This document shows positions 24,112-40,694 of a stretch of DNA of 64,000 bases, in pieces; position 1 is the first letter of the stretch; each line of letters opens with the position of its first letter. The notes under the pieces are model-generated. The model was not told the origin of the DNA. It searched no databases and was given only the letters and a program-made list of their open reading frames with translations. Origin of the DNA: Lachnospiraceae bacterium (GTDB lineage Bacteria; Bacillota; Clostridia; Lachnospirales; Lachnospiraceae); assembly GCA_022769625.1 (NCBI GenBank), contig JALEJP010000055.1, positions 4,701-68,700 of the forward strand, in the 5' to 3' direction. A program made the translations under genes and the position numbers.

Positions 24112-24987
24112 TCAGTCTTCTGGTATCATACCATATTTTATCTTGATCCGCTCCAGCTTCTCAATCATTGGCCTCCCGGCAAACCACAAAAAAAGAACGG
24201 TAGCCGATGCATGAACCAGATCAACCGGAAGTCCCGACATATAGATAGCCAGAAGATTTTTCCAGTTGATGGCATAGGACATCATAACAAGAGAAGCCGG
24301 ATTCATAATTCCCCCATAGATAAACACAGTCGCCAGAAACCCAAAGACGCACAGAGAAATCCTTCCGGCCTTAAGCCATCCTTTCTGGAACAGAATGCCC
24401 GCCAGAAAACCGATGATTCCCATGGCAAACATCTGCCAGGGTGTCCATGGACCCTGCCCGAAAAGCATATTGGAAGCAAGCATACTGACTGCTCCCACCA
24501 GAAATCCGGATTCTGCGCCAAAGCATACCGCAGCAATGATCACAACGGCTGCTACCGGTTTAAAACTTGGCACCATAAAAAATGCCGCCCTTCCCGCCAC
24601 TGCAATGGCAGCCAGAACCGCGATGACTAAAAGCTCTCTTGCCTGGGGCTTTCGTCCTTCAAAGATCATAAAAAAAGGACAGACCGAATAAAGGGCGATT
24701 GCCATACTGATTACCAGATATTTTCTGTCTTTAAAAAGTGTAATTCCAATCAGGATCGTGACGGGAATCAGAAAAAGTATAAGAAAAACAGCTGCCCGTG
24801 TGCGTGCCGGAAGTCTTCCTTTCCTTTTTGGAACAGCCATCACCTCCGGATACTCCATCCACGATTCTTTCTCCTGAACTGCCGTCTGCGGCTCATCCTT
24901 CCAGAAATCCGGATCCACCGGAAGTCCCTCCCCTTTTCCGTCAAAAAACGCATCCAGAAAAAGCTCCAGATTATCCTTTTGCAGCAT
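24112..24987 (-). CDS. ECF transporter S (substrate-capture) component with a ~65-aa cytoplasmic N-terminal extension; corrinoid specificity inferred
   Basis: Six hydrophobic helices and a GQGPWTPWQMF motif. It is the last gene of the riboswitch-controlled operon and overlaps ecfA by 17 nt. GGGAGG lies 8 nt before the ATG at 24987. Confidence 0.75.
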   Translation of the reverse strand: MLQKDNLELFLDAFFDGKGEGLPVDPDFWKDEPQTAVQEKESWMEYPEVMAVPKRKGRLPARTRAAVFLILFLIPVTILIGITLFKDRKYLVISMAIALYSVCPFFMIFEGRKPQARELLVIAVLAAIAVAGRAAFFMVPSFKPVAAVVIIAAVCFGAESGFLVGAVSMLASNMLFGQGPWTPWQMFAMGIIGFLAGILFQKGWLKAGRISLCVFGFLATVFIYGGIMNPASLVMMSYAINWKNLLAIYMSGLPVDLVHASATVLFLWFAGRPMIEKLERIKIKYGMIPED

Positions 24988-26719
24988 CCCCATCACCTCC
25001 CGGAACTTTGCTGTTCGTTAATTCCTCAATCACATCATCCACAGTCACCGCATTGGGATAATATCTGCGTGCCATCCGATTGGCAGCTGTGGTGTAAAAA
25101 CTGTTCCCGGCAAAGAAATCTCCGGAAGCCTTGCAGGTAACGACATTCCCCTGAAAAAAAAGCCCGGTCCGGTCTGCATACTGAGCGCAGAATTCTACAT
25201 CGTGAGAAATCATCAGGACGGTGATCCCCCTCCTGGTCAGTGTCTTTAATATCTCACCCAGCTCTTTTTTAAAATGGTTGTCCATGCCCTTGGTCGGCTC
25301 ATCCATCAGAAGAATTCTTGGCCGAAGAAGTAATATTTTTGCCAGTGCCAGACGCTGCTGTTCCCCGCCGCTTAAATCATAAGGGTGACGGTCCATCAGA
25401 TCTTCCAGCCTGGTAAGTGCCGCAATTCCTGCCACGGCATCTCTTTTTTTCATGTCAATTTGATAGGCGCGGCTCTTTTTCTCCCTCTTTCCATCGATCA
25501 TTTCATACAGATCATCACGGACTGTTTTTTTCACAAAAAGACTTTGGGGATTCTGTGGGAGAACACCCAGGAATCCATGGTACAGTTCATCGTCGGAATA
25601 TTTGTTGATTTCTCTTCCTTCCAGCCATATCTTTCCCCGGTAAGGATAGCGAATCCGGGCAATCAGACTCATAGTGGTACTTTTTCCGGTCCCATTTCCA
25701 CCTACCAGAGCAAAAATCTCACCTTTTTCCACATCCAGAGACAGACCTTTCACCACATCCGGGGATTCCTTTTCATACCGGAACCAGACATCTCTCATCC
25801 GGATTGCCGGTACTCTTTTTTCTTCCGGCTTTCTTTTTGCCCTTGTTTTCTGGCTTTCTTCTTTTTCTGTCTTTGGAGACAGATTTCTCTGTTTCATCTC
25901 CTCCATAAGCCATCTTCTTCCCCTGCTGACCGTAAGAGGGCATTCCAGACTGCTTCCTGCTCCTGCATAAATCTGCATGGGCGTTGGCATGGAAAGAAAC
26001 ATGTCATGATTCCTGTTTTTGAGTTCCTTTCCGATTTCCTGCGGTGTTCCACGTGCAATGATCTCTCCCTGATCCATCACATATACCCGATCTGCCCATG
26101 GAAGCACATCCTCCAGACGATGTTCCGTCAGAATTACGGTAGTTCCCACATCCCGGTTGATCTTTCGCACGGTTTCCAGAAAATCAGAGGCGGCAATGGG
26201 ATCCAGCTGAGAAGTGGGCTCATCCAGAATCAGAAGATCGGGATGCATCGCCATGACTGATGCCAGATTCAGTAACTGCTTCTGCCCTCCTGATAATTCA
26301 CTGACCTTTTTCATAAACCATTCATGAATTCCAAAATAAGAAGCCATTTCTGCCACTCTCAGACGTATGGTAGGCGTATCATATCCCAGACTTTCCAGTC
26401 CAAATGCCAGCTCGTGCCATACCTTATCTGTCACAATCTGATTGTCCGCATTCTGCAGCACATACCCGATCCCGGCACTCTGTGTCCGTTTGTCAAGCGA
26501 ATCCAGTTCTCTTCCCATATAGCGGATACAGCCCGTTTTATCACCGTTGGGCGCAAGCGAAGATTTCAGCTGTCTAAGCAGTGTACTTTTCCCACATCCG
26601 CTTTTACCGCAAAGAACAACAAAGCTTGCATCCTCCACTTCCAGATCAATGTTTTTCAGTATCCAGTTTTCACTGCCGGGATAGCGAAAACAGAATTTTT
26701 CCATTTCAATACAGTTCAT
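24971..26719 (-). CDS. fused ECF transporter ATPase (EcfA-EcfA', two ABC domains)
   Basis: 582 aa with two Walker A sites (GKSGCGKST, GGNGTGKST) and two signatures (LSGGQKQ, LSGGEQQ). Confidence 0.88.
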   Translation of the reverse strand: MNCIEMEKFCFRYPGSENWILKNIDLEVEDASFVVLCGKSGCGKSTLLRQLKSSLAPNGDKTGCIRYMGRELDSLDKRTQSAGIGYVLQNADNQIVTDKVWHELAFGLESLGYDTPTIRLRVAEMASYFGIHEWFMKKVSELSGGQKQLLNLASVMAMHPDLLILDEPTSQLDPIAASDFLETVRKINRDVGTTVILTEHRLEDVLPWADRVYVMDQGEIIARGTPQEIGKELKNRNHDMFLSMPTPMQIYAGAGSSLECPLTVSRGRRWLMEEMKQRNLSPKTEKEESQKTRAKRKPEEKRVPAIRMRDVWFRYEKESPDVVKGLSLDVEKGEIFALVGGNGTGKSTTMSLIARIRYPYRGKIWLEGREINKYSDDELYHGFLGVLPQNPQSLFVKKTVRDDLYEMIDGKREKKSRAYQIDMKKRDAVAGIAALTRLEDLMDRHPYDLSGGEQQRLALAKILLLRPRILLMDEPTKGMDNHFKKELGEILKTLTRRGITVLMISHDVEFCAQYADRTGLFFQGNVVTCKASGDFFAGNSFYTTAANRMARRYYPNAVTVDDVIEELTNSKVPGGDGDAAKG

Positions 26720-27686
26720 CTGCCTCTCCTTCCTTCTGCCGCACAGGATCCGTCATATACCATGGTATCTTTCTTTCCCGGTTGGCCCTGGCTTTCAGTC
26801 TGTAAAAAACGGCATCCTCCCAGACTCCAAACAAAAAGGGAAAAAAACAGATGACGCCCCATGCAAGGTAAACAAGTATACTGTGCGCAGTCAGCGGAAA
26901 ACCGCCGATGATGATCTTCGGATCATACTGTGCAAAAACATCTCCGGAAAAGAATCCTCCAAAACAAACTTCGGTAAGCGCCAGAAGAAGGGCGGAAAGG
27001 ATTCCGTCTCTTCGGTCAAAATGAAAAACGGAAAAAGCAGTCCTTCCTTTCAGACCGTATCCTCTGGCTGTCATGGAATCTGAGGTATCTATGGCATTTT
27101 CCAGTGCCCAGGTAACAAGTATGGAAAATAGTGTAATTCCATATTTTATTTTACGCAGAAAATGTGCATTACTCATATCCCGTCCCACCGCCTTCTGCCC
27201 ATTTCGTATCACCTTCAGCTGCTCTCCAAAGCGCGGCACAAAGCGAAATACCATGGAGAGCACCAGCGAAAGTGATGGGATGATCCGTCCAAACAGATAG
27301 ACAAATTTGTCCGTGGTCATCACCTCGTTGTAGCAGGAAAACCACAGAACTGCAATAAAAAGCATGGAAGACAGAACCACGCCATAGACAATTGCTTCCA
27401 GTGTAACCGGTCCTGTTTTGAGATAGAACAGCGTAGTCACTCCATAATGATTGAAGGCAGGATTAATCAGCGCAACCAGGATCATGGCCGGGAGCGTAAC
27501 CAGGATATTAAATTTTATCACCTTTCTCCAGCCTTTCAGCCGTATGGCATAGGCTGCTGCTCCCAGAAACGAAATGGCAAGCAGCACCGGATGACTGACG
27601 AACATCGTAAACAGCAGGACAATAAGAAAATACATCAGGTTCACCACAGGATGACATCCGGCAAAAGCATCCGTCTGTTTATTCAT
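26706..27686 (-). CDS. ecfT: energy-coupling factor transporter transmembrane protein EcfT
   Basis: CbiQ/EcfT-like polytopic protein with an ARG-type coupling motif (MTARGYGLKGR). ATG at 27686 overlaps the stop of the upstream gene. Confidence 0.82.
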   Translation of the reverse strand: MNKQTDAFAGCHPVVNLMYFLIVLLFTMFVSHPVLLAISFLGAAAYAIRLKGWRKVIKFNILVTLPAMILVALINPAFNHYGVTTLFYLKTGPVTLEAIVYGVVLSSMLFIAVLWFSCYNEVMTTDKFVYLFGRIIPSLSLVLSMVFRFVPRFGEQLKVIRNGQKAVGRDMSNAHFLRKIKYGITLFSILVTWALENAIDTSDSMTARGYGLKGRTAFSVFHFDRRDGILSALLLALTEVCFGGFFSGDVFAQYDPKIIIGGFPLTAHSILVYLAWGVICFFPFLFGVWEDAVFYRLKARANRERKIPWYMTDPVRQKEGEADELY

Positions 27687-28791
27687 AATACTGATCTCCC
27701 ACATCACGTCCCAGATCACAGGTATAGCGCCACTCGATCACATCGCCGTCACTTACTTCATATTTGGAACATCCATAATTCGGAAACCATCCATTCACCG
27801 AATACATCCAGCCGGAAAGCGAACCACAGTCAAACTCATACAGCTGATTGATTCCTTCCACATAATAAGAGCTGTATGCCGGTGTATAGCTTGCCTCCAT
27901 GTGAATATCCGCCTCACGGCATGCCCGGTAGAGTACATCATAGACCGTTTCTCCCGGTGTATAAGAAATTTCTGAGGCATACAGGATCCAGCCATCTGAT
28001 GGTACAAATTCTTCCTTGGATTTTTTGAGATCCTCCATATTATCCAGAATAGTGGAACATTCGATGGAGATGGTACAGGTATGTGTATCTGCGTTTTCCT
28101 GAGAAGAATCCTCTTCCTGTAACGCTGCCTCTTCTGTCCCGGCATCTGTACTTTCCCTGGCCCCGGTGTTTCCCCCCACCAGATAATAGGTATCTCCCAT
28201 CTCGGTAACCTGGAACGTCAGTTTTGTGGTATCTGTCTCAGTTTTTTCCATGGAAACATCACACATCTTTTCCGGTACGCCATCAACCAGTTTGCATAAA
28301 ATGACCAGATCTGCGTCCCACTTCTGCGGAAGCTCCAGTGTCAGCTTTGCGGGTGCAGCCAGATTTTCCTTTGCCAGAGTGACTCCAAGCCCAACCGAAG
28401 CACCATTTGCCGCCTGCTTCACATTCTCCACGTTATCGTCGGTAAAAATAACCTTCAGATTCTGTTCCACCGGATTCTGTATTTTTCTGCCCTCGTAACT
28501 CCAGTAATAGGCAATGTTCCTTGCTTCATCCTGTGAATAAAACTGATACGTCGCATCGGTTCCGGCAATTGCATTCATCTGCTCCCGGGTCACAATACCG
28601 CTTTCCGGCAGCTCCATTCTACCATCTGTAAACAGTTCATCCACGGAGAGCGTTTCCCCGGCCTCTGTTTTTTCTTCTGTCTGCCCGGACTTCTCCAGCT
28701 GTGTGATCTCACTGCTGTTTGTGGTACAGCCTGCAGTAAGCAGCAGGATGGTAAGCACCATCATCCCTATTCGGCTATAATTTCTTTTCAT
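27679..28791 (-). CDS. lipoprotein with a C-terminal DUF4430 (transcobalamin-like beta) domain
   Basis: Lipobox MKRNYSRIGMMVLTILLLTAG|C. The C-terminus GETVYDVLYRA...YVEGINQLYEF..SGWMYSVNGW...DGDVIEWRYT is canonical DUF4430. RBS AGGAGGAG lies before the ATG at 28791. Confidence 0.85.
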   Translation of the reverse strand: MKRNYSRIGMMVLTILLLTAGCTTNSSEITQLEKSGQTEEKTEAGETLSVDELFTDGRMELPESGIVTREQMNAIAGTDATYQFYSQDEARNIAYYWSYEGRKIQNPVEQNLKVIFTDDNVENVKQAANGASVGLGVTLAKENLAAPAKLTLELPQKWDADLVILCKLVDGVPEKMCDVSMEKTETDTTKLTFQVTEMGDTYYLVGGNTGARESTDAGTEEAALQEEDSSQENADTHTCTISIECSTILDNMEDLKKSKEEFVPSDGWILYASEISYTPGETVYDVLYRACREADIHMEASYTPAYSSYYVEGINQLYEFDCGSLSGWMYSVNGWFPNYGCSKYEVSDGDVIEWRYTCDLGRDVGDQYYE

Positions 28792-31700
28792 TTCGTCTCC
28801 TCCTGCCAACAGCAAAAACGATACAGGCTCCCAGTGCAGCTCCCAGAATAAATACAAGCAGGACAGTAATATTTTCACGCTTCCAGATACCGTTCAGACC
28901 GGTGCCGACTGCATGCATACCGGTACGCTCTGAATCATTCTCAGATTCAGGAGACTCCTTTTGTGTATCGTCGGAAGCATTGTCCGGCGTATAAGTCTTT
29001 CCCTCAAAGCTCCATCCTTTTGCTTCTTTTTTGCTGCTTTCTGTTTTTGCACTGCTTGTTTTCTGTGTCCCGTTCTCCGTTTTGCTCAGTGTTTTTCCTA
29101 CGGAACTGCCTTTTGGCTGTGTGTTTCCACCTGTCTGTGACTCTTTCGGATCTGATATTCCGGTTCCGCTCCCGTCTCCCTTTTCTCCTTTTTGAGCTGT
29201 CAGGTCAGACATGTCATAAAGCGAGGTCTTGCCATCACAAAACCGTTGATAAGCAACCAGCGCATAATAGCCCTGTTCCGTTGCCATCCCATTTACCACG
29301 CCGCCTTCACCGCCTCCATTTGTCGCCGCTCCGGCTTTGACATGCATAAACCCGCTGCCGTCGATATGATAAGAAATCAGGTTTTCCACGGTCCATCTTC
29401 CATTTTTAATGAAACGTGCGTCCTTCCGGGGATCAATTCCAAGTGCACAGAGTGCGGTAATGACCTGTGCATTGGATTCCAGCGTTTCCGCTCCCATCGT
29501 GCCGAAACCGCCTGTCTTCAGCTGCATCTTTGACAGGCGGTTTACGCCACGGTCAATTGCCGCCGTTACCTTCCCGTAACTCTCCTTATTGTAATAAGGT
29601 GCCAGCGCCTGCAGTGTCATGGCTGTAATATCGGTATCCGGTTCGTCTCCCTGCAAAGACCATCCCCCTCCGGCAATCTCTCCTTCCAGCAGATAATCAA
29701 TCAGTTTTTGTTCAGTTGTCTGTTCAGAAACACCGGAAACCTTTGGAATCGTATAGTCCGGATTGCAGTTCAGCGCAATCAGAGCCCAGATGGGACCATT
29801 AAATCCCTGTTCCGTGATTTTTGCAAAATCTGCAAGATTTTCCAGCAGATTGTAACCTGCTATGTTTCTTGCATCCTTCCCGATGGCTGTCATAACCAGG
29901 ATCTGTTTGGAATACTCGGTATATTTCACACTGTTGGTCAGTTTGCCATCCTTTTCCTCCAGGTAATTTGCAAGATGATTGTAATAGGTCTGAAAATATT
30001 TGGATTTCAGGGATTTCCCCCCTCTTGCAAGACCAAGCACAAACCATTCACTTCCTACGGTGGGGTCTTTGTCAATGGAAAGCATATATTCTGATGTCTC
30101 TTTCCTGACCTGGTCAACCGATTTTTTCAGTTTATTGGCTTTGTCTGTCACCGTCACTTTGCAGAATGCTGTTATGGATGCGTCTGACTTCAGTGAAACG
30201 GTAACCTTTACACTTCCCGGTGAAATGCCTTTCAGCATCCCGTCACCCGTGACCTTCACGATGGACGGATCGGAACTTTTTATGACTACTGTTCTGTCTG
30301 TCGTCGCATTGAATGGTGTATAATCCACCTCCAGGGAAATCGTGTTTCCAATCCCTACATATTCTTCCGGGGGGACTGAAATTTTTGTAACACGGATCGG
30401 ATTGCTGACGATCAGCAGCGCTCCGGTGTGACTGGTCTTGAACGTAATGCCGTTATCGGTAATCTGGCTTTCCAGCTCCTTTAAAACCACAGAGCTTCCC
30501 TCTGCTGTCAGGGTATTGACGCAGGGATTGTTCAGATTCTGTGCCTCCGAGAGATCTGCTTTTAATTCCAGATCCCTGTCTGGCGTATAAGTGGTTCCAC
30601 TTCGGATATCCTGATAGGAAATGATCTTATTGAAAGCAATGGATGCAAAGGAAGAATACTTTTCTGTCACTGCTTTCTTCCAGGAACTGTTTTCCGTTCC
30701 ATTTTTTACAGTCAGGCACACATACCACGCGGCAGTAACACTTAAGCCACCTGAGGTGTGGATCTGATCTCCGATCCACTGACGGATGGATTTGATGGAG
30801 TCGGTTGTTTTTTCTGACAGCCGGTTCAGCTGTTCTGCTTCCATAGCATCACAGGCATTGGAAATCACGATGAAGCTTTGGATCTGTTTGGAATTTAAGT
30901 CAAACGGCTTTGTCTGATCCACCGAAGCCACAGTCTCGTTGACACAGGAAACCGTCCAGTCTGCAATCTCTTCCATACGTTCTGCTGCTTCCTCGTTCAG
31001 ATAAGCCTTCTGATCTGCAGCGAGACTGGAATACCTTTTCCAGAGATCCACTGCATCCGCCACATTGCCAACCGTCACACGGTCTGCAAAATCCGTTATC
31101 TTTTTCTGCACTGTATCTGCTTCTGTTTTCAACTGCCGGATTTTCTCTTCCAGGTTTACCAGCTTCCGGATCAGATCGGCATCCAGCTTACTTTGCTGTT
31201 CTGTGTCCAGATCTTCGTAAGCACTGCGCACTTCCCGAACCGCGGTTTCATCCGAAAGCGAAACGCGTTCCGGTGACGGCAGATCTGTCAGCCTGTCCCG
31301 AACCCTCTCCACCTGCTTCTGCTTTTCAATCACCACATCTGCTTCCTGTTTCAGCCTGCGAAGCTCTTCCACAGACCCCGCTGACATCTCCTTTTGTACT
31401 TCATCGGAAAGTGACAGGTATTCATCCCACACCTTTTGAATCTGCTGCGCTGTTTCTTCTGTCACAGCACCTGCAGAAGAAAGCGCAGTGATTTTTGTCT
31501 CCATGGACTTTGCCAGCTCCTTCGGTGTGCCCACCATAATTTTACATTCCGCTGACACTCCACTTTGAGTCCGAACCGTAATGACCGCTTCCCCGTTTTT
31601 CAAAGCAGTGACTTTCCCCGAGGCATTCACAGAGGCAACCGAAGCATCGCTGCTTGCGTATGTAACACTCAGTTTTTCCGTGGCATTTTCGGGCTCATAT

Positions 31701-32833
31701 TTTTCCACATGGATTGAAACACTGTCTCCCATTTTCAACCAGGCAGTCGTCTGGTTCAGAATGATTTTCGTGATCTTCCGATCCTTTACCGTCACATGAC
31801 AGACCGCCGTTTTCTGATTCTGCGTTTTCACGGTGATATCAGCCGTTCCAACTCCCAAAGCCGTCACCAGTCCATCCGAATCCACCGATACAACCCCACC
31901 ATCGGAGCTGACCCATTCCAGAGAATACTGGTTCACATTTTCCGGACTCAGGACCGCATGAAGCTTCAGGGTATCACCTGGACTTAAATCTGCCTGCGTT
32001 TTCTGTAAAGTGATCTGATTGGGAAAAACCGGTTCTTCCTCCGGCAGCTGTGCCAGGGCATAATCCAGCTCACTTTGTGATGCATCCAGCTTCTGCAGTA
32101 CCGTTATGGCGTTGTAATAAGCTGCCTCACATCCCGGCACACAAAACCAGACTGATTTCTTCTGATTGATCTGTGCGATTTTCCTGGTAAGTGCCGTCTT
32201 ATCTCCCACCGGATAATACACCTTTGTTTTGTCACTGTAGCTGCATCCGGTAAGGTCTTCTCCGTATCCCCACACTGTAAACTGCAGTCGGAACACATCA
32301 CCGTCTTTCGGACTTTTCCCGTCCATGCCTACACCTGGATACTCATTACCTTTATCATTTCCCACAGAATACATCCATCCGGACATTCTCGAATAAGAAA
32401 ATTCTCCAAGCCATGCCAGATTTCCCGCATACTCATTTTTCGCACTGTTATCCGGAGGTTCCACGTTTTTAATACCTATTTTTTTCGCTCCGATCGTTTT
32501 GATGCAGGAAGGAATCGAAATCGTCCCTGCGTCTGCGCCATTGATTCCGGAAAGATAAAAACTGGCTCCTTTTGTGTCGTAGCTGTATCCATTTTCCTGC
32601 AAAACCCTCCTGCAGATCGTCTCATACGTATCCCCGCTCTGAAAGGTTGTCACATAGGGTTGGATCAGATAGCCCTGGCCGATGGAAAAACGTTCCACTG
32701 CCACGGTAACAGTTCCAGCAGAGACAGTTTCTGCCTCTGCTGAAATCATACAGCCCGGAAATGTTGAAAAAACAAGTACTGCTGACAATAGAAATGATAT
32801 CAAACAGTTCACTCTCTTTTTTCTTCTATCCAT
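28775..32833 (-). CDS. 1352-aa cell-surface protein: signal peptide, DUF4430, Big_2 modules, helical repeats, alpha/alpha-toroid (prenyltransferase/transcobalamin-alpha-like) domain, S/T-rich linker, C-terminal TM anchor
   Basis: N-terminal block FSIGQGYLIQPY...SGWMYSVGND...DGDVFRLQFTVWG. Big_2 blocks (LKLHAVLSPENVN..). Toroid motifs NGPIWALIALNCNPDY, TDITAMTLQALAPYYN and GGFGTMGAETLESNAQVITALCALG. Tail VLLVFILGAALGACIVFAVGRRRRNEKKL with no LPXTG. Confidence 0.8.
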   Translation of the reverse strand: MDRRKKRVNCLISFLLSAVLVFSTFPGCMISAEAETVSAGTVTVAVERFSIGQGYLIQPYVTTFQSGDTYETICRRVLQENGYSYDTKGASFYLSGINGADAGTISIPSCIKTIGAKKIGIKNVEPPDNSAKNEYAGNLAWLGEFSYSRMSGWMYSVGNDKGNEYPGVGMDGKSPKDGDVFRLQFTVWGYGEDLTGCSYSDKTKVYYPVGDKTALTRKIAQINQKKSVWFCVPGCEAAYYNAITVLQKLDASQSELDYALAQLPEEEPVFPNQITLQKTQADLSPGDTLKLHAVLSPENVNQYSLEWVSSDGGVVSVDSDGLVTALGVGTADITVKTQNQKTAVCHVTVKDRKITKIILNQTTAWLKMGDSVSIHVEKYEPENATEKLSVTYASSDASVASVNASGKVTALKNGEAVITVRTQSGVSAECKIMVGTPKELAKSMETKITALSSAGAVTEETAQQIQKVWDEYLSLSDEVQKEMSAGSVEELRRLKQEADVVIEKQKQVERVRDRLTDLPSPERVSLSDETAVREVRSAYEDLDTEQQSKLDADLIRKLVNLEEKIRQLKTEADTVQKKITDFADRVTVGNVADAVDLWKRYSSLAADQKAYLNEEAAERMEEIADWTVSCVNETVASVDQTKPFDLNSKQIQSFIVISNACDAMEAEQLNRLSEKTTDSIKSIRQWIGDQIHTSGGLSVTAAWYVCLTVKNGTENSSWKKAVTEKYSSFASIAFNKIISYQDIRSGTTYTPDRDLELKADLSEAQNLNNPCVNTLTAEGSSVVLKELESQITDNGITFKTSHTGALLIVSNPIRVTKISVPPEEYVGIGNTISLEVDYTPFNATTDRTVVIKSSDPSIVKVTGDGMLKGISPGSVKVTVSLKSDASITAFCKVTVTDKANKLKKSVDQVRKETSEYMLSIDKDPTVGSEWFVLGLARGGKSLKSKYFQTYYNHLANYLEEKDGKLTNSVKYTEYSKQILVMTAIGKDARNIAGYNLLENLADFAKITEQGFNGPIWALIALNCNPDYTIPKVSGVSEQTTEQKLIDYLLEGEIAGGGWSLQGDEPDTDITAMTLQALAPYYNKESYGKVTAAIDRGVNRLSKMQLKTGGFGTMGAETLESNAQVITALCALGIDPRKDARFIKNGRWTVENLISYHIDGSGFMHVKAGAATNGGGEGGVVNGMATEQGYYALVAYQRFCDGKTSLYDMSDLTAQKGEKGDGSGTGISDPKESQTGGNTQPKGSSVGKTLSKTENGTQKTSSAKTESSKKEAKGWSFEGKTYTPDNASDDTQKESPESENDSERTGMHAVGTGLNGIWKRENITVLLVFILGAALGACIVFAVGRRRRNEKKL

Positions 32834-32857
32834 AACTCCATACCAGACTCTGAATGT

Positions 32858-35800
32858 TTACTTTTTGATCTTCACAGCTTTTGCGGAAGAATAAGCGCTG
32901 TATACCTTCTTGCCGTTTACCTTCCGGTAAGCTCTTACTTTATAATAACAGGTACTGCCTTTTTTCCGTTTGCTGTCTGTATATTTAACCGTTTTTCCGG
33001 AACGGATGGTTTTGATTGCTTTATAAGTTCCGTTCTTTTTGGATGCACGGTAAACAATGTAACCGCTTGCACCTGCAACCTTCTTCCAGGTGATAAGTGC
33101 TTTCTTTCCTTTTTTATTTTTTACGGAAATAACAGCTTTTGCGGGTACGGTTTTTGCTGTCACACTATTGGAAAGCTGACTGTATACTGTTTCACCCCAT
33201 GCTGTACTCACCGCCTGTACCGCATAGTAATACCGGGTTCCGGTTACTGCATTCCTGTCACGGAAATTCAGCTCTTTTGTCTCGCCAAGTTTCTGCCAGT
33301 TTCCACCTGATACTTTACGGTAAATCGAATAGGAAGCTGCACCGATACAGGATTTCCAGGAAAGCTCCACACAATTATAGGAAACTGCTTTGGCAGCTGC
33401 CGAAGGTACCAGTTCCCGGAATTCTGTTTTTAACTTTTCCAGCGCCGCTTTCTCTGCTGCTTCTTTTTCCGCTTCCTGATTATCATCCGCGGATCCACCC
33501 ACATCGGTCAGGTCATACAGGGCGTTCTCTTTTTCAACAAAACGGCGGTATGCTTCAAACGCATAGGTCGTCTGCTGTGTTCCCATTGCATTTCCTTTGG
33601 TTTCCACAGATGGATCCCAGTAGAAACCTTCCTCTGCCTTGTAGCTCCACAGATTTGTAATCATATTTTTCTGACCGATGGTAAATCCATTTTTACCATC
33701 AGCCGCATCCATACCTGCCACAGACAGAGCAGTCAGAATCTGTGCCGTGGTACAGCTGTTCTCATTGTAGGATTTATTCGCCGCAAAGCCGGCCTCTAAA
33801 GACATCTGTTCCTGAAGCCATGTCAGTGCTTTCTCAAAGGCTTCCTGAACTTCCGGATGCTTCTCGTTATTATAAGGAGCCAGTGCCTGCAGGATCATAC
33901 CGGTCATATCAACATCGGTTGCATCGGTTAAGGTAAATCCTCCGCTGGCATCCTGGAAAAGAAGGAGCATCTCAATCAGGCTGTCCCGATTCCATTTTGC
34001 TTTTGCCGGAGTTTTGTAATTTTTGCTGTCAAGTGCAATCAAAGTCCAGGATATCTGATTGGAGGTCAGCTCATCCAGATCCTTCCAGTTGTACAGCTTT
34101 TCAATCAGGTTCATTCCACGGAAATTTTCCGGGTTTTCCCCCATGACTCCCAGTGTCAGTACAACACGGACATAGTCTGTAGGCTGGTTCAGTCCATTCT
34201 TCAATGAAGTTTCCACACTGTCCAGATACGCAGACTGATCTGCTTCCTGAATCGTTCCACCGGCCCTGAGGATCGTAAAGATATTCCACTCATCCCCGTA
34301 TTTCGTCACACTCTGTCGTTCCAGGTAATCCAGTCCGTGCGTAATACCAGCTTTTACCGTAGGCATCGGATCATAGGTTTCTGCTGTTTCGCTTTTTACC
34401 GTAACAGTGAATGTGATCGGTTTGCATCCGCCTGATGTATCGTATGGCGTGCCGGTCACGGTAACAGTTCCTGCTTTTTTGGCAACAATAGTCTTACCAT
34501 TCATGCTCACGATTCCATTTTCACTGTAACTCCAGTCAAAATCAGAATTTGTTGCATTGGAAGGTGTTGTCTCCAGACTCAGAGCAAGGGTATCGCCCAC
34601 ATTCATCTCATAAGAAGTCTGCTTCAGGGACGCATCCGTTAACGGAACCTGATATACAAAGGTAACCATTACTTCCTGGGTAAGGGAAGGGTTGTCCTGA
34701 CTGGTAACCTTAAATTTTGCCACCCCGGCTCTTTTTGGAACAATACCGGAATTATGCTGTGATGTATAGAAAGCCACATCCGGTGTCAGTGCTTCCCAAA
34801 TCAGTTCCTTATTGGTCGCATTGGAAGGTGTATAATCAATCTTCAGATTATCGCTGTAAAGCTGCAGACCGTAATAGTAGCCGGTCATAAAATCCGTCTC
34901 ACCGGTGATCGTAAAGGTTTCCGGCGTTGTGATTTGAAACCCACTTAAAGGCTGGTAATTACATTTTGCAAGGAATTGCTGTTTAACGCTCCAGTTATCC
35001 TTCATGAAAACAGACATGGCAGCCTGTCCCCCGGTTTTGATGGACAGGTTATTTCCAACCCACCTGAAATTATAGGTGGTATCATTCGTATCATAATGAA
35101 GGGCCTGCGCCGGTATAACCTGCCACTCATCTTCTGCTGTTTTCCGGCCATAGGTTGTCACTTCCACGCCGCTTGTTGTTCCTTCTGTTACATATGGCTG
35201 ATCCAGGGATACTTCCTGATCACCCACGCAGGTTTTCAGTTCGGTGATACCGCTGGAAACACATGTCACCTGAAAAGATTTGCTCCATCCTCCAGAATCA
35301 GCAATAATATTCAAAGTTCTTGTATCCCAGGGATTCCATTTACCGGTTTCCCGATTTATGAAGCTCCAGTACTGCAGATCATCTCCTCCTGCAATGGAAG
35401 ATACGAAATCACTGCCGCCACTCCATGTAGTGGTACCTTCCGATCTTCCAACCACAAATTTACCTTCATCCAGACAGGTCAGTGTAATCGTATTATCTTC
35501 ACCGAGAATCTGCGGATCCCTTCCGTCTTCATATTCAAAATATACATAGGGTCCCTGATAAGCAGTGACTTCTACCTCAAAAGTGGATGTCCTGGATCCG
35601 ACTTTTACGATGACGCTGGTCTTTCCTTCCTTTTTTCCTTTTACGGAAGCAAGATATTCATTTCCTTCCATCGGTATAACCTCTGCCACCGTTTCATCTT
35701 CCACGCTCCACTCCCAGTCCAGATTTTCAATACCGGATGGAACCACTTCAGCCATCAGATTGAGTTCCCCGGAAATGGCTTCCACCTGATTGGTGGAACC

Positions 35801-36730
35801 CATATTAGTGATGTAGAGACTGTCAGCATCACGAACGGTCACCTCAACACTGTCTTTTACTTCCGGATTCTCTGCTGTCACGGTAATGGTTGCTGTTCCG
35901 GCACCAATTCCTTTGATCACGCCATCCTTAACCGTTGCGACCGTTTCATCTGTTGATTCCCAGGTCAGAACATCTGTGCTTCCAAGAGGATCCAGTGTCG
36001 GTATCACGGTCACTTTCTGACCGCCGTAAATCTCCATTTTTTCTTCCGGCAACGTGATGTCCACTGCTCCGTCCGTGGCCGTCTCCATCTTTTCTTTTGC
36101 AGCGGCTACTGTCTCAGGAGTAGCATCCGTCGTATTCAGGAGCATCGCAACCGCCTCATCATAGGCAGCTCTGCGATTGCCGCCAAGTGCATTGGCATCA
36201 TATTGGGAGAGAGTCTGGATCAGCGCATCCTTGCTGACCTTTATATTTCCAACGGCTCCCCATCCTCCACCTTCTGAGGTTATTCCCGCTTTTTCCAGAT
36301 CACTTCCCGGGATATAAATAATACGCAAAACCGTTACCCGGCTTGCCCAGAAAGACGCAGAGTCGGTATAGCACTCACCGTCTGCCGATATCACCCATTT
36401 CGATCCTTCTCCGAGATCACCGTTATCGAGCCATCCGTCTTCCCGGCTGTCATCTTTAAATCCAGTAATCTCATCGTTGCTCATTTTAACCTGATCACTT
36501 CCCAGAAGTGACGTGATAAAAGGCGTACCATAACTGCCGCTCCAGCTCTCTGTCATCGTTGGCGGAACCAGAATCGTCCCATTTCCTTCTGCATCATATT
36601 TTTCAACGGTATAATACCTTGGTGCTGCTGCCTGCACCTGCACATCCATCACCGTAAATCCGGAGATGATCATGCACAGAGTAAGAACAATGCTCACTGC
36701 TCTTTTTAAAAACTTATTTCTCCTGTTCAT
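32858..36730 (-). CDS. 1290-aa secreted surface protein: Big_2 modules, beta-rich region, alpha/alpha-toroid domain, two very basic Fn3 modules
   Basis: Signal peptide MNRRNKFLKRAVSIVLTLCMIISGF... Several Big_2 blocks. Toroid motifs QISWTLIALDSKNYK, VDMTGMILQALAPYNN and EAGFAANKSYNENSCTTAQILTALSVAG. C-terminal Fn3-like repeats (SYSIYRKVSGG.., GYIVYRASKKNG..). ATG at 36730 lies 7 nt after GAGGAGG. Confidence 0.8.
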   Translation of the reverse strand: MNRRNKFLKRAVSIVLTLCMIISGFTVMDVQVQAAAPRYYTVEKYDAEGNGTILVPPTMTESWSGSYGTPFITSLLGSDQVKMSNDEITGFKDDSREDGWLDNGDLGEGSKWVISADGECYTDSASFWASRVTVLRIIYIPGSDLEKAGITSEGGGWGAVGNIKVSKDALIQTLSQYDANALGGNRRAAYDEAVAMLLNTTDATPETVAAAKEKMETATDGAVDITLPEEKMEIYGGQKVTVIPTLDPLGSTDVLTWESTDETVATVKDGVIKGIGAGTATITVTAENPEVKDSVEVTVRDADSLYITNMGSTNQVEAISGELNLMAEVVPSGIENLDWEWSVEDETVAEVIPMEGNEYLASVKGKKEGKTSVIVKVGSRTSTFEVEVTAYQGPYVYFEYEDGRDPQILGEDNTITLTCLDEGKFVVGRSEGTTTWSGGSDFVSSIAGGDDLQYWSFINRETGKWNPWDTRTLNIIADSGGWSKSFQVTCVSSGITELKTCVGDQEVSLDQPYVTEGTTSGVEVTTYGRKTAEDEWQVIPAQALHYDTNDTTYNFRWVGNNLSIKTGGQAAMSVFMKDNWSVKQQFLAKCNYQPLSGFQITTPETFTITGETDFMTGYYYGLQLYSDNLKIDYTPSNATNKELIWEALTPDVAFYTSQHNSGIVPKRAGVAKFKVTSQDNPSLTQEVMVTFVYQVPLTDASLKQTSYEMNVGDTLALSLETTPSNATNSDFDWSYSENGIVSMNGKTIVAKKAGTVTVTGTPYDTSGGCKPITFTVTVKSETAETYDPMPTVKAGITHGLDYLERQSVTKYGDEWNIFTILRAGGTIQEADQSAYLDSVETSLKNGLNQPTDYVRVVLTLGVMGENPENFRGMNLIEKLYNWKDLDELTSNQISWTLIALDSKNYKTPAKAKWNRDSLIEMLLLFQDASGGFTLTDATDVDMTGMILQALAPYNNEKHPEVQEAFEKALTWLQEQMSLEAGFAANKSYNENSCTTAQILTALSVAGMDAADGKNGFTIGQKNMITNLWSYKAEEGFYWDPSVETKGNAMGTQQTTYAFEAYRRFVEKENALYDLTDVGGSADDNQEAEKEAAEKAALEKLKTEFRELVPSAAAKAVSYNCVELSWKSCIGAASYSIYRKVSGGNWQKLGETKELNFRDRNAVTGTRYYYAVQAVSTAWGETVYSQLSNSVTAKTVPAKAVISVKNKKGKKALITWKKVAGASGYIVYRASKKNGTYKAIKTIRSGKTVKYTDSKRKKGSTCYYKVRAYRKVNGKKVYSAYSSAKAVKIKK

Positions 36731-36832
36731 CTTAATCCTCCTCACGAAATCCTAAAACATTCAAAGTCCGCTCATTTTTCTGATATCATAAAACGATGAT
36801 ATGTTTGTTGCGATCGCCTCCTTTTCCTCCAG

Positions 36833-37693
36833 TTATGATTTATCTGCAAATTCCATATCGAAACCAAACTCCCGGCAGTATGCTTCCACCCTTCCACCTC
36901 TTCTGCATCTGATTTTTGTGGATCGGTTGATGATCCATTCCCCGATTTCATCCGGTTCATGCAGAATTTCAAGCACCTGCAGTCGATTGCATCCGTGAAA
37001 TACCCACTTCCCGATTCGTTTTACACTTTCCGGGATTTTTACCGATTTCAGCATCGTGCATTTGAAAAATGCTGCTTCCTCCAGTTCCACAAGGCGTTCA
37101 GGTAAATGAAGTTCTTCCAGGGCCGTGTAGTAAAAGGCTTCCTGGCCAATCTTTTTCACCGATTTCGGTATATGAATTTGAGTCAGTGATTTACATCGAT
37201 AAAACGCTCTGCGTTCAATCCTTTCCAGATTGGTTGGAAGTACAATTTCCCTAAGCTGTGTGCAGCAGTCAAAAACACAGGATCCAAGTTCCGGCAGCAA
37301 CGCATCCGGATCCACAAAAACCGTCTGAAGCTTTCTGCACTCTTTAAACGCAGCGCTCTCCAGAAGTCTGATCTCTCTTGGGATACGGACGCTCTGCAGC
37401 GCACAGCTGCGTGCAAATGCCGCTTCTCTTATGGCTGTCACAGACTCCGGCAGCAAAAGTTCTCCTTCTATGCCGCAATTTTTAAAAGCTTCACGGCCGA
37501 TGATCCGGCAGGTTTTCGAAAATCTTACCTGTCTGAGTTTTGTCATATTTTCAAACGCTTTATCACCAATAAAAAAATACGGATCCGGTATGACAAACTC
37601 CTCCTGATTACGGCTCCCTACCTGCTTTTTTGTGATGGTTCTTACGGAAAGTTGTAAATCATGCCATTTCTTTTCATCCAGTTTGTATCGCAT
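36833..37693 (-). CDS. BspA-type leucine-rich repeat (LRR_5) protein without a signal peptide; first gene after the riboswitches
   Basis: Repeats of the type IG..AF..C..L..V.IP.SV..I. The N-terminus MRYKLDEKKWHDLQLSVRT is hydrophilic. RBS AAAGGAG lies 6 nt before the ATG at 37693; the track start 37744 lies inside the riboswitch terminator. Confidence 0.75.
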   Translation of the reverse strand: MRYKLDEKKWHDLQLSVRTITKKQVGSRNQEEFVIPDPYFFIGDKAFENMTKLRQVRFSKTCRIIGREAFKNCGIEGELLLPESVTAIREAAFARSCALQSVRIPREIRLLESAAFKECRKLQTVFVDPDALLPELGSCVFDCCTQLREIVLPTNLERIERRAFYRCKSLTQIHIPKSVKKIGQEAFYYTALEELHLPERLVELEEAAFFKCTMLKSVKIPESVKRIGKWVFHGCNRLQVLEILHEPDEIGEWIINRSTKIRCRRGGRVEAYCREFGFDMEFADKS

Positions 37694-37733
37694 CCTCTGC
37701 TCCTTTCCGTTTCCCCTGCCTTTTTCAGGCAAC

Positions 37734-37940
37734 AAAAAAAGCACATTTCCCTCACCCGGGAAACATTACTTCCACACCCGATATGGCAGGTCTCCTGACT
37801 TAGCTTCTTCCTCCGAAGCGCCTTCTCGAATCTTTCTTTCAATGGCATTTGCTTCTTCGTCGGCAATACAGTAGTGGTGACTGTCCCGGATTCCAACCGG
37901 GTTCCCTTTTTGCTCCACACAGATTGTGCTTCACCATATC
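37734..37940 (-). promoter_or_regulatory. cobalamin riboswitch, gene-proximal copy, with terminator
   Basis: Minus strand reads GGTGAAGCAC...AAAAGGGAACCCGGTTGGAATCCGGGACAGTCACCACTACTGTA. The B12 box AGTCAGGAGACCTGCC is the complement of 37785-37800. It is followed by GUUUCCC gggtga GGGAAAU + U7 (37734-37764). Confidence 0.88.
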
Positions 37941-37986
37941 GTGATTTTCTATTGTTAATTTACCCTGACTTTTATTTTTGGGTAAC

Positions 37987-38192
37987 AAAAAAGTACATTT
38001 TCCTCACCCGGAAAACATGACCTTGAATCAATCATGGCAGGTCTCCTGACTCAGCTTCTTCCTCCAAAGCGCCTTCCCGGCAATATCTGCCAGTGGCCTT
38101 CTGCTTTTTCGTCTGCATTACAGTAGTGGTGACTGTTCCGGTTTCTGACCGGATTCCCTTTTTACTCCACACAGTATGTGCTTCACCATGAC
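37987..38192 (-). promoter_or_regulatory. cobalamin riboswitch, promoter-proximal copy, with terminator
   Basis: Minus strand reads GGTGAAGCAC...AAAAGGGAATCCGGTCAGAAACCGGAACAGTCACCACTACTGTA. The B12 box AGTCAGGAGACCTGCC is the complement of 38036-38051. It is followed by CAUGUUUUCC gggtga GGAAAAUG + U6 (37987-38019). Confidence 0.88.
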
Positions 38193-38212
38193 GATTAATT
38201 TATATTTTTTTC

Positions 38213-38241
38213 ATTGTATTTCTTTTTGCCTTCCTTGTCAA
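38213..38241 (-). promoter_or_regulatory. promoter of the riboswitch-controlled operon (TTGACA-17-TACAAT)
   Basis: On the minus strand, TTGACA is the complement of 38236-38241 and TACAAT the complement of 38213-38218, spaced 17 nt. It lies about 20 nt upstream of the first aptamer. Confidence 0.75.
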
Positions 38242-38357
38242 CCCCTGCAGCCTGGAAATCGTCCCTTCGTGTCATGTAAAAGAAATCGATAACTGATATA
38301 CTATTGCTATAAAACTATACCCTTAAGAGCGTATGCAAGAAAAAGGAGGAGAAGGAG

Positions 38358-38675
38358 ATGAAAACATCCGTATCAAAAATCATAAGGAACATGTTCCTGC
38401 TCCTTACAATGGCGTTCCTGATACCGTCCATTGCCAAGGCAGCACTCATCACAAGCAGCGGTGGAAATGGAAAAGAAGCGACTCCGCATCAGCTGACCAT
38501 AGGTCACTGTGAAGATGACACGTTCACCTACACCGTCAGTTCTGGATGTATAAGTGCTTCCAGTTTGAGCAGTAATTCCTTCCTCGTAAAGCAAGGTGAG
38601 ACAGTTACTCTCATCATTCGAAGTGGTTCAAATCCCGGTAAAGCTGTGAAGAAAGTAGTGAAACTTAAAAATTAA
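38358..38675 (+). CDS. small secreted protein (105 aa), no recognisable family
   Basis: Strong RBS AAAAGGAGGAGAAGGAG, signal peptide ...FLIPSIAKA|A, and a strong terminator after the stop. Confidence 0.6.
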   Translation: MKTSVSKIIRNMFLLLTMAFLIPSIAKAALITSSGGNGKEATPHQLTIGHCEDDTFTYTVSSGCISASSLSSNSFLVKQGETVTLIIRSGSNPGKAVKKVVKLKN

Positions 38676-38750: not shown

Positions 38751-40694
38751 TTACAGACTTTTCATTTTAATCGTGCCTGCAGCACCACTGTTTCGGAAAA
38801 TACTCCGGTATGCTTCCATGTAATTTGCCTGCACGCTGAAAGCTGCGGTAGATTTGATTCCCTTAAATGCTTTGCTTCCAACCTTGCTCTTTGTCAGCTC
38901 CGTACTTCGGAAAATCAGTGTCTTCAGACTGCTGTCACCATAAAAGGCATATTTTCCGATGGTATTCAGCTTTTTAGAAACGGTGTTAAACTTGTATGCT
39001 GACGTACAGCCGCGGAATGCTCCCTTCTTAATGGTGGTCAGCTCCGGAGAAGAAATGTAAATTCTCCGCACGGAAGATACGTCGCGGAACGACCTCACTC
39101 CAATCATCTCGGCAGAAGGAAGGGTGATCCGGTATGACGTCCCGCCAACGGTTGTCAGACTGGTACATCCATAAAAGGCTTCTTCGTAGATCATCCGGAC
39201 TTTTTTACAGCCGCTTGCTTTTACAAGAGAGGTACATCCTTTGAAAGCATATTTTCCAATCTCTGTCACGCTGTCCGGTATGGAAATGTTTGTTATTTTC
39301 TTGTTGCCTGTCAATGCTTTTTCTGCAATGGAAGAAACCTTATAGGTAATACCGTTGATTGCGACCTGGGAGGGAATCGTCACAGATGTAATCTCATCAT
39401 CCAGAACACCGGCATACGCCACTTCCTGGCTTCTTACCGTAACCGTATATTTTCCGCCTGTTTTGCTGTCAAACAGCGTTGTGCCTGCCGTTGGAGCCAC
39501 ATACTGAACCGGAAGCAGAGCCGTATTTCTGAGATATGGATATCCGTTGTTGACGGATGCCTCCACTGCCCAGATTTCCGTGAAATCAAATCCGCTGAAA
39601 TAAGATGCCGTCTTAATCTGCACATCATTCAAAGCGATCGCTGTCCCGGTGATATAAGTTCCATCGGAAAAGGCATAGACCGGGTTCATGCTGTAATAAT
39701 AACAGCCGGACAGGGCACAGGCTGATGTCTGACTGCTTCCTGCGGCAACGCCTGCACTTCCAACCATGCCCAGAGCTTCTGAATAGTACATCTGAATACC
39801 AATACATTTACTGATACGCAGTGTCCCCACCGCTGCTGTCACTCTGCCGACCAGATTTCCTCCTCTTGTCAGCACACCGGCATTGTAACAGTTTTCTATT
39901 TTCACGTTTCGCACCGATTTTCCATCCGGAATGTCAACCGCACCAATCAATCCTCCCATTTCTGTGCCCGATACTTCTCCCACATTATAACTGGATGTAA
40001 ACAGCACATCCGCTTGCTCTTCCTGGTCGTCTTCTGCTTCAAGCATACCGATCAGACCTCCGCTGTTTGCACCGCCGTTTATTTTTGCGCTGTTTGCAAT
40101 GCCTTCAAACTGTATATCGGTTCCTTTCACCAGTCCGGCCAGTGCGCCGGTGTTTCCGGTTCCTGAAACGTTTCCGGTTATGCTTACATTCTGAATCCGG
40201 ACGGATGCCTTTTTCCCGGTTCCAATGGTGTCGGCCAGTGCACCGGTATCCCCGCTATGGCTGATTTCCACATCAACAAGGGAAAGATTACAGATGGTTC
40301 CCTCTTCCAGCACCTGAATCAATGCTGTTTTCAGTCCTTTGATCTGATGATTTCCTCCATCCAGCGTTCCGCGAAAAACCGGAATGCTTCCCTGCCATTC
40401 CGCGGAAGCCAGATCAAGATCATTCATTAATATATATTTGCCATCCGGTTTTTCTGACAGTTTGGAAAGATCGGATACCTGATAGATCCCCTGATAGCCT
40501 TCCGGCACATTCGAATCCTGCTGCACTTCTGACTCTGCTTCACTTTCTTTCTCAGATTCTGTTCCCGGATTTAAAACCTCCTGCTGTACGATTCCGGAAC
40601 CTATACTTTCTGCTGCAAACCCAACCTGTCCGGCTGTCATAGAAACTGCCAGACCTGCCACCAGGCAGGCTGCCAGATATTTTCTGTTCTTCAT
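38751..40694 (-). CDS. secreted surface protein with GLUG-motif repeats and a C-terminal BspA-type LRR region
   Basis: Signal peptide MKNRKYLAACLVAGLAVSMTAGQVGFA. Repeated G(A/G)L(A/I)G blocks (TGALADTIG, TGALAGLV, SGGLIGML, MGGLIGAV). C-terminal LRR_5 repeats (IPDSVTEIGKYAFKGCTSL...). Confidence 0.75.
   Translation of the reverse strand: MKNRKYLAACLVAGLAVSMTAGQVGFAAESIGSGIVQQEVLNPGTESEKESEAESEVQQDSNVPEGYQGIYQVSDLSKLSEKPDGKYILMNDLDLASAEWQGSIPVFRGTLDGGNHQIKGLKTALIQVLEEGTICNLSLVDVEISHSGDTGALADTIGTGKKASVRIQNVSITGNVSGTGNTGALAGLVKGTDIQFEGIANSAKINGGANSGGLIGMLEAEDDQEEQADVLFTSSYNVGEVSGTEMGGLIGAVDIPDGKSVRNVKIENCYNAGVLTRGGNLVGRVTAAVGTLRISKCIGIQMYYSEALGMVGSAGVAAGSSQTSACALSGCYYYSMNPVYAFSDGTYITGTAIALNDVQIKTASYFSGFDFTEIWAVEASVNNGYPYLRNTALLPVQYVAPTAGTTLFDSKTGGKYTVTVRSQEVAYAGVLDDEITSVTIPSQVAINGITYKVSSIAEKALTGNKKITNISIPDSVTEIGKYAFKGCTSLVKASGCKKVRMIYEEAFYGCTSLTTVGGTSYRITLPSAEMIGVRSFRDVSSVRRIYISSPELTTIKKGAFRGCTSAYKFNTVSKKLNTIGKYAFYGDSSLKTLIFRSTELTKSKVGSKAFKGIKSTAAFSVQANYMEAYRSIFRNSGAAGTIKMKSL

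Follow-up and report, generated by a model that had tools for sequence, protein, structure and literature searches.

Why is an operon preceded by two riboswitches of the same class, one directly after the other? This question is raised by a stretch of 64,000 nt from a Lachnospiraceae bacterium (assembly GCA_022769625.1, contig JALEJP010000055.1, positions 4,701 to 68,700), which is referred to as the window. The host is an uncultured gut bacterium related to Blautia. A preliminary description, made from the sequence only, had proposed that the minus strand carries two complete cobalamin riboswitches in tandem. Both are indeed full-length matches to the Rfam family RF00174. We consider it likely that they form a pseudo-cooperative tandem, with two independent transcriptional OFF switches of the adenosylcobalamin (AdoCbl) type in one leader, ahead of a corrinoid uptake operon.

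The whole window was scanned against Rfam 15 with cmscan. Exactly two matches were above the gathering score (31.5 for RF00174). Both belong to RF00174 and both are on the minus strand. The promoter-proximal riboswitch is called unit 1, the gene-proximal one unit 2. Their aptamers have the following elements.

38204-38019, minus strand: cobalamin aptamer of unit 1 (RF00174, 109.8 bits, E=1.3e-26, model positions 1-189 of 189)
37953-37768, minus strand: cobalamin aptamer of unit 2 (RF00174, 91.3 bits, E=2.5e-21, model positions 1-189 of 189)
38051-38036, minus strand: B12 box of unit 1, AGTCAGGAGACCTGCC (sequence reading and RF00174 match)
37800-37785, minus strand: B12 box of unit 2, AGTCAGGAGACCTGCC (sequence reading and RF00174 match)
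38136-38119 (unit 1) and 37884-37867 (unit 2), minus strand: core ACAGTCACCACTACTGTA, the same in both units (sequence reading)
38132-38127, minus strand: loop L5 of unit 1, UCACCA, complementary (UCACC:GGUGA) to the terminator loop
37880-37875, minus strand: loop L5 of unit 2, UCACCA (sequence reading)

The two aptamer matches are separated by a gap of 65 nt. Both units contain AGUCAGGAGACCUGCC, to be compared with the B12-box consensus AGCCAGGAGACCUGCC, and both have the core helices P1-P6 as well as a P6 extension, which is typical of the AdoCbl class. The P6-extension hairpin has the canonical form in unit 1, GCCACUGGCA...UGCCGGGAAGG (CACUGG.../...CCGGG). In unit 2 it is a variant with compensated pairs, GCCAUUGAAA...AUUCGAGAAGG (CAUUGA.../...UCGAG). 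The preliminary description had already recognized the identical B12 box and the conserved core, both of which can be read directly from the sequence, and had placed the units correctly to within about 12 nt at their 5' ends. It had also called for an RF00174 search followed by a structural alignment. Both matches, with the scores given above, retain the consensus pairs. At the level of sequence analysis, a tandem of two complete cobalamin-class riboswitches in one 5' leader is confirmed.

Each aptamer is followed by an expression platform.

38018-37987, minus strand: expression platform of unit 1, a 9-bp hairpin followed by U6 (5' arm 38018-38010, loop GGGUGA 38009-38004, 3' arm 38003-37995, U6 37992-37987)
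37766-37734, minus strand: expression platform of unit 2, a 9-bp hairpin followed by U7 (5' arm 37766-37758, loop GGGUGA 37757-37752, 3' arm 37751-37743, U7 37740-37734)

At the DNA level, the hairpins read ATGTTTTCC-GGGTGA-GGAAAATGT followed by T6 in unit 1 and ATGTTTCCC-GGGTGA-GGGAAATGT followed by T7 in unit 2. Their fold energies are -11.2 kcal/mol (z = -2.8) and -13.8 kcal/mol (z = -3.9), respectively, and in neither case was any of 200 dinucleotide shuffles as stable. This bears out the earlier claim that each unit ends in a hairpin with a GGGTGA loop and a tract of six to seven U. A consensus terminator scan called the hairpin of unit 2 and missed that of unit 1, because the stem of the latter has only two G-C pairs. 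With a hairpin and U6 or U7 after each aptamer, each member of the tandem has its own expression platform, in line with the criteria of Sherlock et al. (2022).

The loops L5 and the terminator loops are complementary. UCACC of L5 and GGUGA of the terminator loop can form five contiguous Watson-Crick pairs in both units. By a rough estimate, two 6-nt loops would show such complementarity by chance in about 0.4% of cases. A kissing loop between L5 and L13 is the established link from aptamer to platform in the cobalamin class (PMC9600662). Six related terminators all have the GGUGA loop, on stems that show covariation: 98% of cells are paired, and two pairs have changes on both sides. The stem variants of the closest relatives are UUUUCC/GGAAAA, UUUCCC/GGGAAA and UUUCUC/GAGAAA. 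L5 is invariant among these relatives, so that no covariation between L5 and the loop is seen; an L5-L13 contact is suggested by the complementarity and the loop conservation. In more distant relatives, P13 is separate from the terminator, or the complementarity between L5 and the loop is imperfect. In the window, no hairpin other than the terminator is present in the stretch from P1 to the U tract. The terminator stem and P13 thus appear to be one and the same helix. A different L5 (UCUAUCU) is found in the riboswitches of two relatives, L005 (4818-5005, minus strand) and L068 (535-724). In L005, a perfect complement of this L5, AGAUAGA, is located directly 5' of the terminator stem. This suggests that the geometry of the pairing between L5 and platform differs from that in the window.

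Are both units on the same transcript? The elements that bear on this question are the following.

38241-38213, minus strand: promoter-like site TTGACA-17 nt-TACAAT, 11/12 to consensus (sigma-70-like consensus scan)
37986-37954, minus strand: spacer of 33 nt between the units, with a degenerate -10 copy, TAACAAT

The strong site at 38241-38213, just upstream of unit 1, is the sole promoter-like site on the minus strand in the region 37400-38600. The same consensus scan found none on this strand in the spacer (37986-37954). The TAACAAT remnant has no acceptable -35 element 16-18 nt upstream, as read from the sequence. There is no real open reading frame (ORF) between the units; only spurious out-of-frame ORFs overlap the region. 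As judged from the consensus scan, a single sigma-70-like site precedes the tandem, which is the one-transcript arrangement expected of a pseudo-cooperative tandem. The gene upstream is encoded on the opposite strand from 38358 onward, which places the leader in a divergent intergenic region. The degenerate -10 copy in the spacer indicates that the duplicated segment, whose period is 251-252 nt, reached from about the -10 element to a point shortly beyond the terminator. The tail that follows the terminator of unit 1 (GUUACCC) can pair with GGGUAA of the spacer to form a 6-bp hairpin (37960-37985, minus strand), for which no function is evident. A single-nucleotide polymorphism (SNP) between strains, A to G at 37960, keeps this pairing as a U-G wobble.

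How does this arrangement compare with known tandems? Tandem AdoCbl riboswitches were first noted by Sudarsan et al. (2006), who are credited in PMC9481103. In a survey of their own, Sherlock et al. (2022) counted 26 AdoCbl doublets as pseudo-cooperative tandems (PMC9481103). Such tandems are defined by two riboswitches of the same class that share a leader, are less than 300 nt apart and have no ORF between them. The window tandem has two of the same class in one leader, 65 nt apart and without an intervening ORF. It resembles the pseudo-cooperative AdoCbl tandems in having two cobalamin-class riboswitches in one leader, each with its own intrinsic terminator, and a short gap. Both are predicted OFF switches, and there is no architectural difference. 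The window tandem stands before an ECF-CbrT uptake operon that also codes for giant surface proteins, in a member of the Lachnospiraceae. In every structural respect that can be assessed computationally, the window tandem corresponds to the pseudo-cooperative category, and its predicted architecture is one that has already been described.

Related arrangements differ in instructive ways. The tenA leader of Bacillus anthracis has tandem TPP riboswitches (Welz and Breaker 2007, described in PMC9481103), which, as predicted for the window, are two independent transcriptional OFF switches in series for the same ligand. It is the experimentally characterized precedent, with a steeper response in the absence of true cooperativity (PMC9481103). 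Its ligand class differs, and the window system is known from sequence. The tandem glycine riboswitch likewise has two homologous aptamers for one ligand in one leader. Its aptamers, however, interact physically and share a single expression platform, whereas each aptamer in the window has its own terminator, so that cooperative binding is not expected. In the SAM-I/AdoCbl tandem upstream of metE, which acts as a NOR gate, an AdoCbl OFF switch with its own terminator is likewise in series with another OFF switch. That tandem responds to two different ligands; in the window, both aptamers are of the cobalamin class, with one and the same core.

We propose the following course of events for the window tandem. 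Transcription would start at the single promoter (38241-38213), and RNA polymerase would transcribe unit 1 first. With a corrinoid bound, the aptamer would hold the B12 box and the 3' strand of P1. L5 (UCACC) could then kiss the loop GGUGA of the weak, A/U-rich hairpin, which would be P13 and terminator stem at once. The kissing loop formed after ligand binding would stabilize this weak terminator, and transcription would stop at the U6 tract (around 37987). Without ligand, the 5' arm of the terminator would probably be captured by GGAGAC of the B12 box or by the purine-rich GGAAGAAG. Transcripts that escape would meet unit 2, where the same decision would be made at the U7 tract (around 37734). 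Expression would then be the product of two read-through fractions, with a lower leak when B12 is plentiful and a steeper dose-response. Tandems for the same ligand with separate terminators are read as giving steeper, more digital responses (PMC9481103). A tighter, more digital OFF switch, which is the standard interpretation of the tandem architecture in that work, may be carried over to the window by analogy, and the double switch probably tightens the shut-off.

Several points weigh against this model. Ligand binding, the 3' ends and the expression response are predictions from the sequence. Both terminator hairpins are weak (-11 to -14 kcal/mol), and that of unit 1 fails a simple consensus scan. 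The minimum-free-energy folds of both full units already contain P1 together with the terminator, and the antiterminator is therefore poorly defined. Neither minimum-free-energy folds nor truncated folds of the units revealed a convincing conserved antiterminator. The candidates, GGAGAC of the B12 box or GGAAGA, either of which might pair with the 5' arm of the terminator, are only suggestive. Finally, the system can do without the second unit, given that four relatives with a riboswitch ahead of the homologous first gene or operon manage with one.

How long have the two units existed side by side? They are about 76-77% identical over aptamer and platform and about 82% identical over the aptamer. 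The differences cluster in P1, in L4, in the hairpin of the P6 extension and in the linker that leads to the terminator; there are none in the ligand-proximal core, B12 box, L5 or terminator loop. The impression of a near-identical core and B12 box with a diverged periphery, gained by eye in the preliminary description, was accurate. Both units were mapped onto the Rfam consensus structure, and the pairs formed in both were compared. Among these, 25 are identical, one is changed on one side, and seven are changed on both sides and yet paired (three in P1, one in P4 and three in the P6 extension). Consensus pairs that are not formed are mostly at the outer end of the model P1. The others belong to a hairpin that is poorly aligned by the model, yet CACA/UGUG pairs on inspection in both units. 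The variant P6-extension hairpin of unit 2 is also present in the single riboswitches of L027, L048 and L001. The lower score of unit 2 is attributed to this variant, which is common to riboswitches that are sole regulators. The compensatory changes, the occurrence of the variant hairpin in sole regulators and the location of strain differences outside helices and terminators argue that both units are functional RNAs and that neither is decaying.

L027 (= L002, uncultured Blautia sp. UMGS143) has a single-copy riboswitch before the orthologous operon, with the same L5 and the same GGGUGA terminator loop as the window units. Its promoter and leader are like those of unit 1; its P6-extension variant, platform, downstream 5' untranslated region (UTR) and the first codons of the gene are like those of unit 2. 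Such a mixed likeness is expected if an internal segment was duplicated. Identity to the L027 riboswitch is 88% for unit 2 and 81% for unit 1, while the units are 77% identical to each other. In neighbor-joining trees, unit 2 groups with L027 in 99% of bootstraps (aptamer and platform) or 90% (aptamer only). Unit 1 and unit 2 pair in 1.4%, and unit 1 branches outside the pair of unit 2 and its Blautia ortholog L027. A recent, lineage-specific duplication with symmetric divergence was rejected on account of these bootstrap values (1.4% versus 90-99%). The CAUUGA/UCGAG hairpin is a derived state common to unit 2 and L027. Homoplasy or an exchange between paralogs might also lie behind this sharing, since both hairpin types recur among more distant relatives.

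The sequences make it safe to conclude that the duplication is not recent. Possibly, it is no younger than the divergence from the UMGS143 lineage, one of the copies having been lost later in relatives. Orthologous proteins of the window and of that lineage are only 43-69% identical. Alternatively, unit 1 may have changed at a higher rate than unit 2. The single riboswitches of L027 and L067 show no clean 5'/3' breakpoint, which would be a sign of tandem collapse by unequal recombination; the states that they share with the two units form a mosaic. The preliminary description had suggested an old duplication kept under selection. This view is supported by the seven compensatory changes, by the retention of both units in conspecific strains and by the grouping of unit 2 with the single riboswitch of another species.

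The conspecific strains were found through the leucine-rich repeat (LRR) protein encoded by the first regulated gene. This protein is encoded at 99% identity on independent Logan assemblies, two of which (L063 and L064) span the leader. Both have the same two RF00174 matches as the window. Compared with the window, they show three differences in the aptamer match of unit 1, none in that of unit 2, none in either terminator and two in the spacer. Within the leader, the differences are densest in the spacer (2 of 33 nt). Few as they are, they avoid helices and terminators. Other short contigs from the same species end 33-43 nt upstream of the LRR gene, as is expected of assemblers at a repeat. 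An assembly artifact was rejected, given that the tandem is present with few SNPs in two independent Logan assemblies and that the other short contigs break exactly at the repeat.

A single riboswitch is located upstream of the homologous first gene or operon in L027, L024 (a Lachnospiraceae metagenome-assembled genome, MAG), L067 and L068. These are all of the more distant relatives examined that have a riboswitch at the homologous position (n=4). Exact-match scans with the core 18-mer, which diverged tandems would escape, found no second copy at any of 22 representative-genome loci and 29 metagenome loci. In the data searched, the tandem is confined to one species-level lineage. In another Lachnospiraceae MAG (L017), two cobalamin riboswitches stand back to back on opposite strands, 255 nt apart (1339-1532, minus strand, and 1788-1969, plus strand). 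These are presumably the leaders of divergent operons.

Other explanations of the doubled riboswitch have to be weighed against two switches in series. One is that a single unit regulates and that the other is a redundant or decaying duplicate, carried along neutrally. This would fit the single riboswitch that relatives have upstream of the homologous first gene or operon. The candidates for decay would be unit 2, which scores 18 bits below unit 1, or unit 1, which has the weaker terminator (two G-C pairs and U6) and in which all three between-strain aptamer differences fall. However, both units match the model over its full length and exceed the gathering threshold by about 60-80 bits, and seven compensatory pair changes have kept both folded despite a divergence of about 20%. 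Each has an intact B12 box, L5 and terminator loop, which do not differ between the two. The lower score of unit 2 stems from a hairpin variant that also occurs in riboswitches present as sole copy, and the strain differences in unit 1 are in loops and junctions, outside the helices. In addition, the units have diverged from each other more than unit 2 has from its ortholog in another species, so a non-functional copy would have had time to decay. We regard this explanation as quite unlikely. Separate transcripts are extremely improbable. In that case, transcription of unit 2 and the operon would begin at an internal promoter in the spacer, and the switches would not act in series. The -10-like remnant TAACAAT, which the spacer keeps from the duplication, would be in line with this. 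Yet the consensus scan shows no promoter-like site between the units, the remnant lacks an acceptable -35 element at 16-18 nt, and the orthologous leader of L027 with its single riboswitch uses the same promoter as unit 1.

Another explanation, considered in part in the preliminary description, is that the aptamers have diverged in affinity or in corrinoid selectivity (for example base-on versus base-off cobamides, or cobinamide) and form a gate with two thresholds or two inputs. In this case, only particular corrinoids, or different levels of them, would shut off the uptake operon. A corrinoid-scavenging gut bacterium faces many cobamide variants. L4, P1 and the P6 extension are not the same in the two units, and such peripheral differences could matter: chimera work has shown that selectivity determinants are dispersed across scaffold and platform (PMC9600662). 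Both types of P6 extension, CACUGG/CCGGG and CAUUGA/UCGAG, recur among related riboswitches. Nevertheless, the units do not differ in the core next to the ligand, in the B12 box, in L5 or in the terminator loop, and the same Rfam model is the best within the cobalamin clan for both. We know of no sequence rule that predicts corrinoid selectivity, and the differences between the units fit neutral, structure-preserving drift equally well. We thus consider a gate of this type, and with it a diverged corrinoid selectivity of the two aptamers, to be unlikely. It is tempting to speculate that the units are non-redundant and were kept for so long for their differences in corrinoid affinity or selectivity, or for a cross-unit kissing interaction between L5 of unit 1 and the terminator loop of unit 2. 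We give this proposal little credence as well. If it applied, the leader would be a graded or two-input sensor that matches a costly surface apparatus for corrinoid scavenging to the cobamide mix of the gut. Two independent AdoCbl-type OFF switches in series remain our preferred reading.

Which genes would be controlled by this tandem? The operon consists of seven genes.

37693-36833, minus strand: BspA-type LRR_5 protein, 286 aa, first regulated gene (ribosome-binding site AAGGAG 37705-37700, ATG 37693)
36745-32858, minus strand: Big_2 (Ig-like) protein, 1295 aa, secreted (signal peptide)
32833-28775, minus strand: Big_2 (Ig-like) protein, 1352 aa, secreted (signal peptide, C-terminal membrane anchor)
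28878-27679, minus strand: lipoprotein with DUF4430 (transcobalamin C-terminal-like domain; lipobox LTAGC; likely start at the Met that is ORF residue 29)
27719-26706, minus strand: ECF T component, CbiQ family
26719-24971, minus strand: fused double ABC ATPase
24996-24112, minus strand: ECF S component, CbrT-like (matches PDB 6FNP chain A)

The seven genes are on one strand, with short gaps or overlaps between them. The next gene, clpB, has its own strong promoter at 24073-24045. The ATG start of the LRR gene is conserved in the ortholog from L027. Automatic gene calls over-extend this ORF to a GTG at 37744, which is inside the terminator of unit 2, resulting in a protein of 303 aa (P0121) rather than 286 aa. 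The transmembrane part of the S component (residues 117-289) matches chain A of PDB 6FNP with E=8.5e-10. This structure is ECF-CbrT, a characterized ECF importer for vitamin B12 (PMC5997447). With a CbrT homolog as S component and an adjacent T component and two ATPase domains, the set of an ECF-CbrT-type importer is complete. DUF4430 is the C-terminal domain of transcobalamins (PMC4350170). A search of solved structures with the DUF4430 protein returned nothing significant. The CbrT-like S component, the DUF4430 lipoprotein and the ECF T component with its ATPases are the basis for assigning the regulated unit, about 13.6 kb in size, as a corrinoid capture and uptake operon, the transport specificity being predicted.

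The preliminary description had assumed that an expensive operon is shut off very tightly by corrinoids. The operon is large; its content points to corrinoid capture and uptake, not to biosynthesis. A B12 biosynthesis operon was rejected: there are no cob or cbi biosynthetic genes downstream, where LRR, Big_2, DUF4430 and ECF-CbrT proteins are encoded instead.

Several Lachnospiraceae loci have the same gene order (small protein, giant Big_2 proteins, DUF4430 protein, T component, ATPases, S component). In the Blautia version of the operon, a sortase and CbiZ come after these genes. The nearest homologs bear Lachnospiraceae and Blautia names. A conserved operon is found in L024, L027, L030/L031 and L061 as well as in the window (24112-37693, minus strand), and it is under the control of a cobalamin riboswitch wherever the leader is readable; in L030/L031, the operon starts outside the flank covered. 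Besides an LRR_5 protein and one or two secreted Big_2 proteins of about 1100-1750 aa, it codes for a lipoprotein with DUF4430 and for an ECF transporter whose S component is CbrT-like. As judged from this content, it looks like a Gram-positive surface apparatus for corrinoid capture. A limited literature search centered on DUF4430 did not find a description of such a surface corrinoid-capture operon.

The window tandem reveals no new regulatory principle. It is a natural example of two stacked OFF switches, predicted to respond to the same ligand, before an operon of about 13.6 kb that codes for two surface proteins of about 1300 aa and a B12 importer. Close relatives with a single switch, together with copies that have diverged by compensatory changes, are convenient material for comparison. 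Such a comparison could test if tandem cobalamin switches only sharpen the response and cut the leak or also discriminate between gut corrinoids. The natural contrast of single and double switches among relatives and the corrinoid-scavenging gene context are what makes this locus most useful.

A few minor observations concern loci that are related or adjacent to the operon. A compact variant locus (L069-L072), which was reached via LRR homologs, codes for a 173-aa DUF4430 protein, a 170-aa LRR_5 protein, an ECF T component and ATPases, and adjoins a gene for a TnpB of the IS605 family. It has no RF00174 match at the gathering score. The divergently oriented gene upstream of the leader codes for 414 aa in L063 (1160-2174), as compared to an ORF of 105 aa in the window (38358-38675). 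Relative to L063, the window lacks about 930 nt at 38548-38633, and the retained 5' part is about 12% divergent, versus about 2% elsewhere. Just upstream of the leader, a second LRR_5 protein of 647 aa is encoded (38751-40694, minus strand). It has a region resembling the N-terminal part of M26 IgA1 proteases and is conserved in L063.

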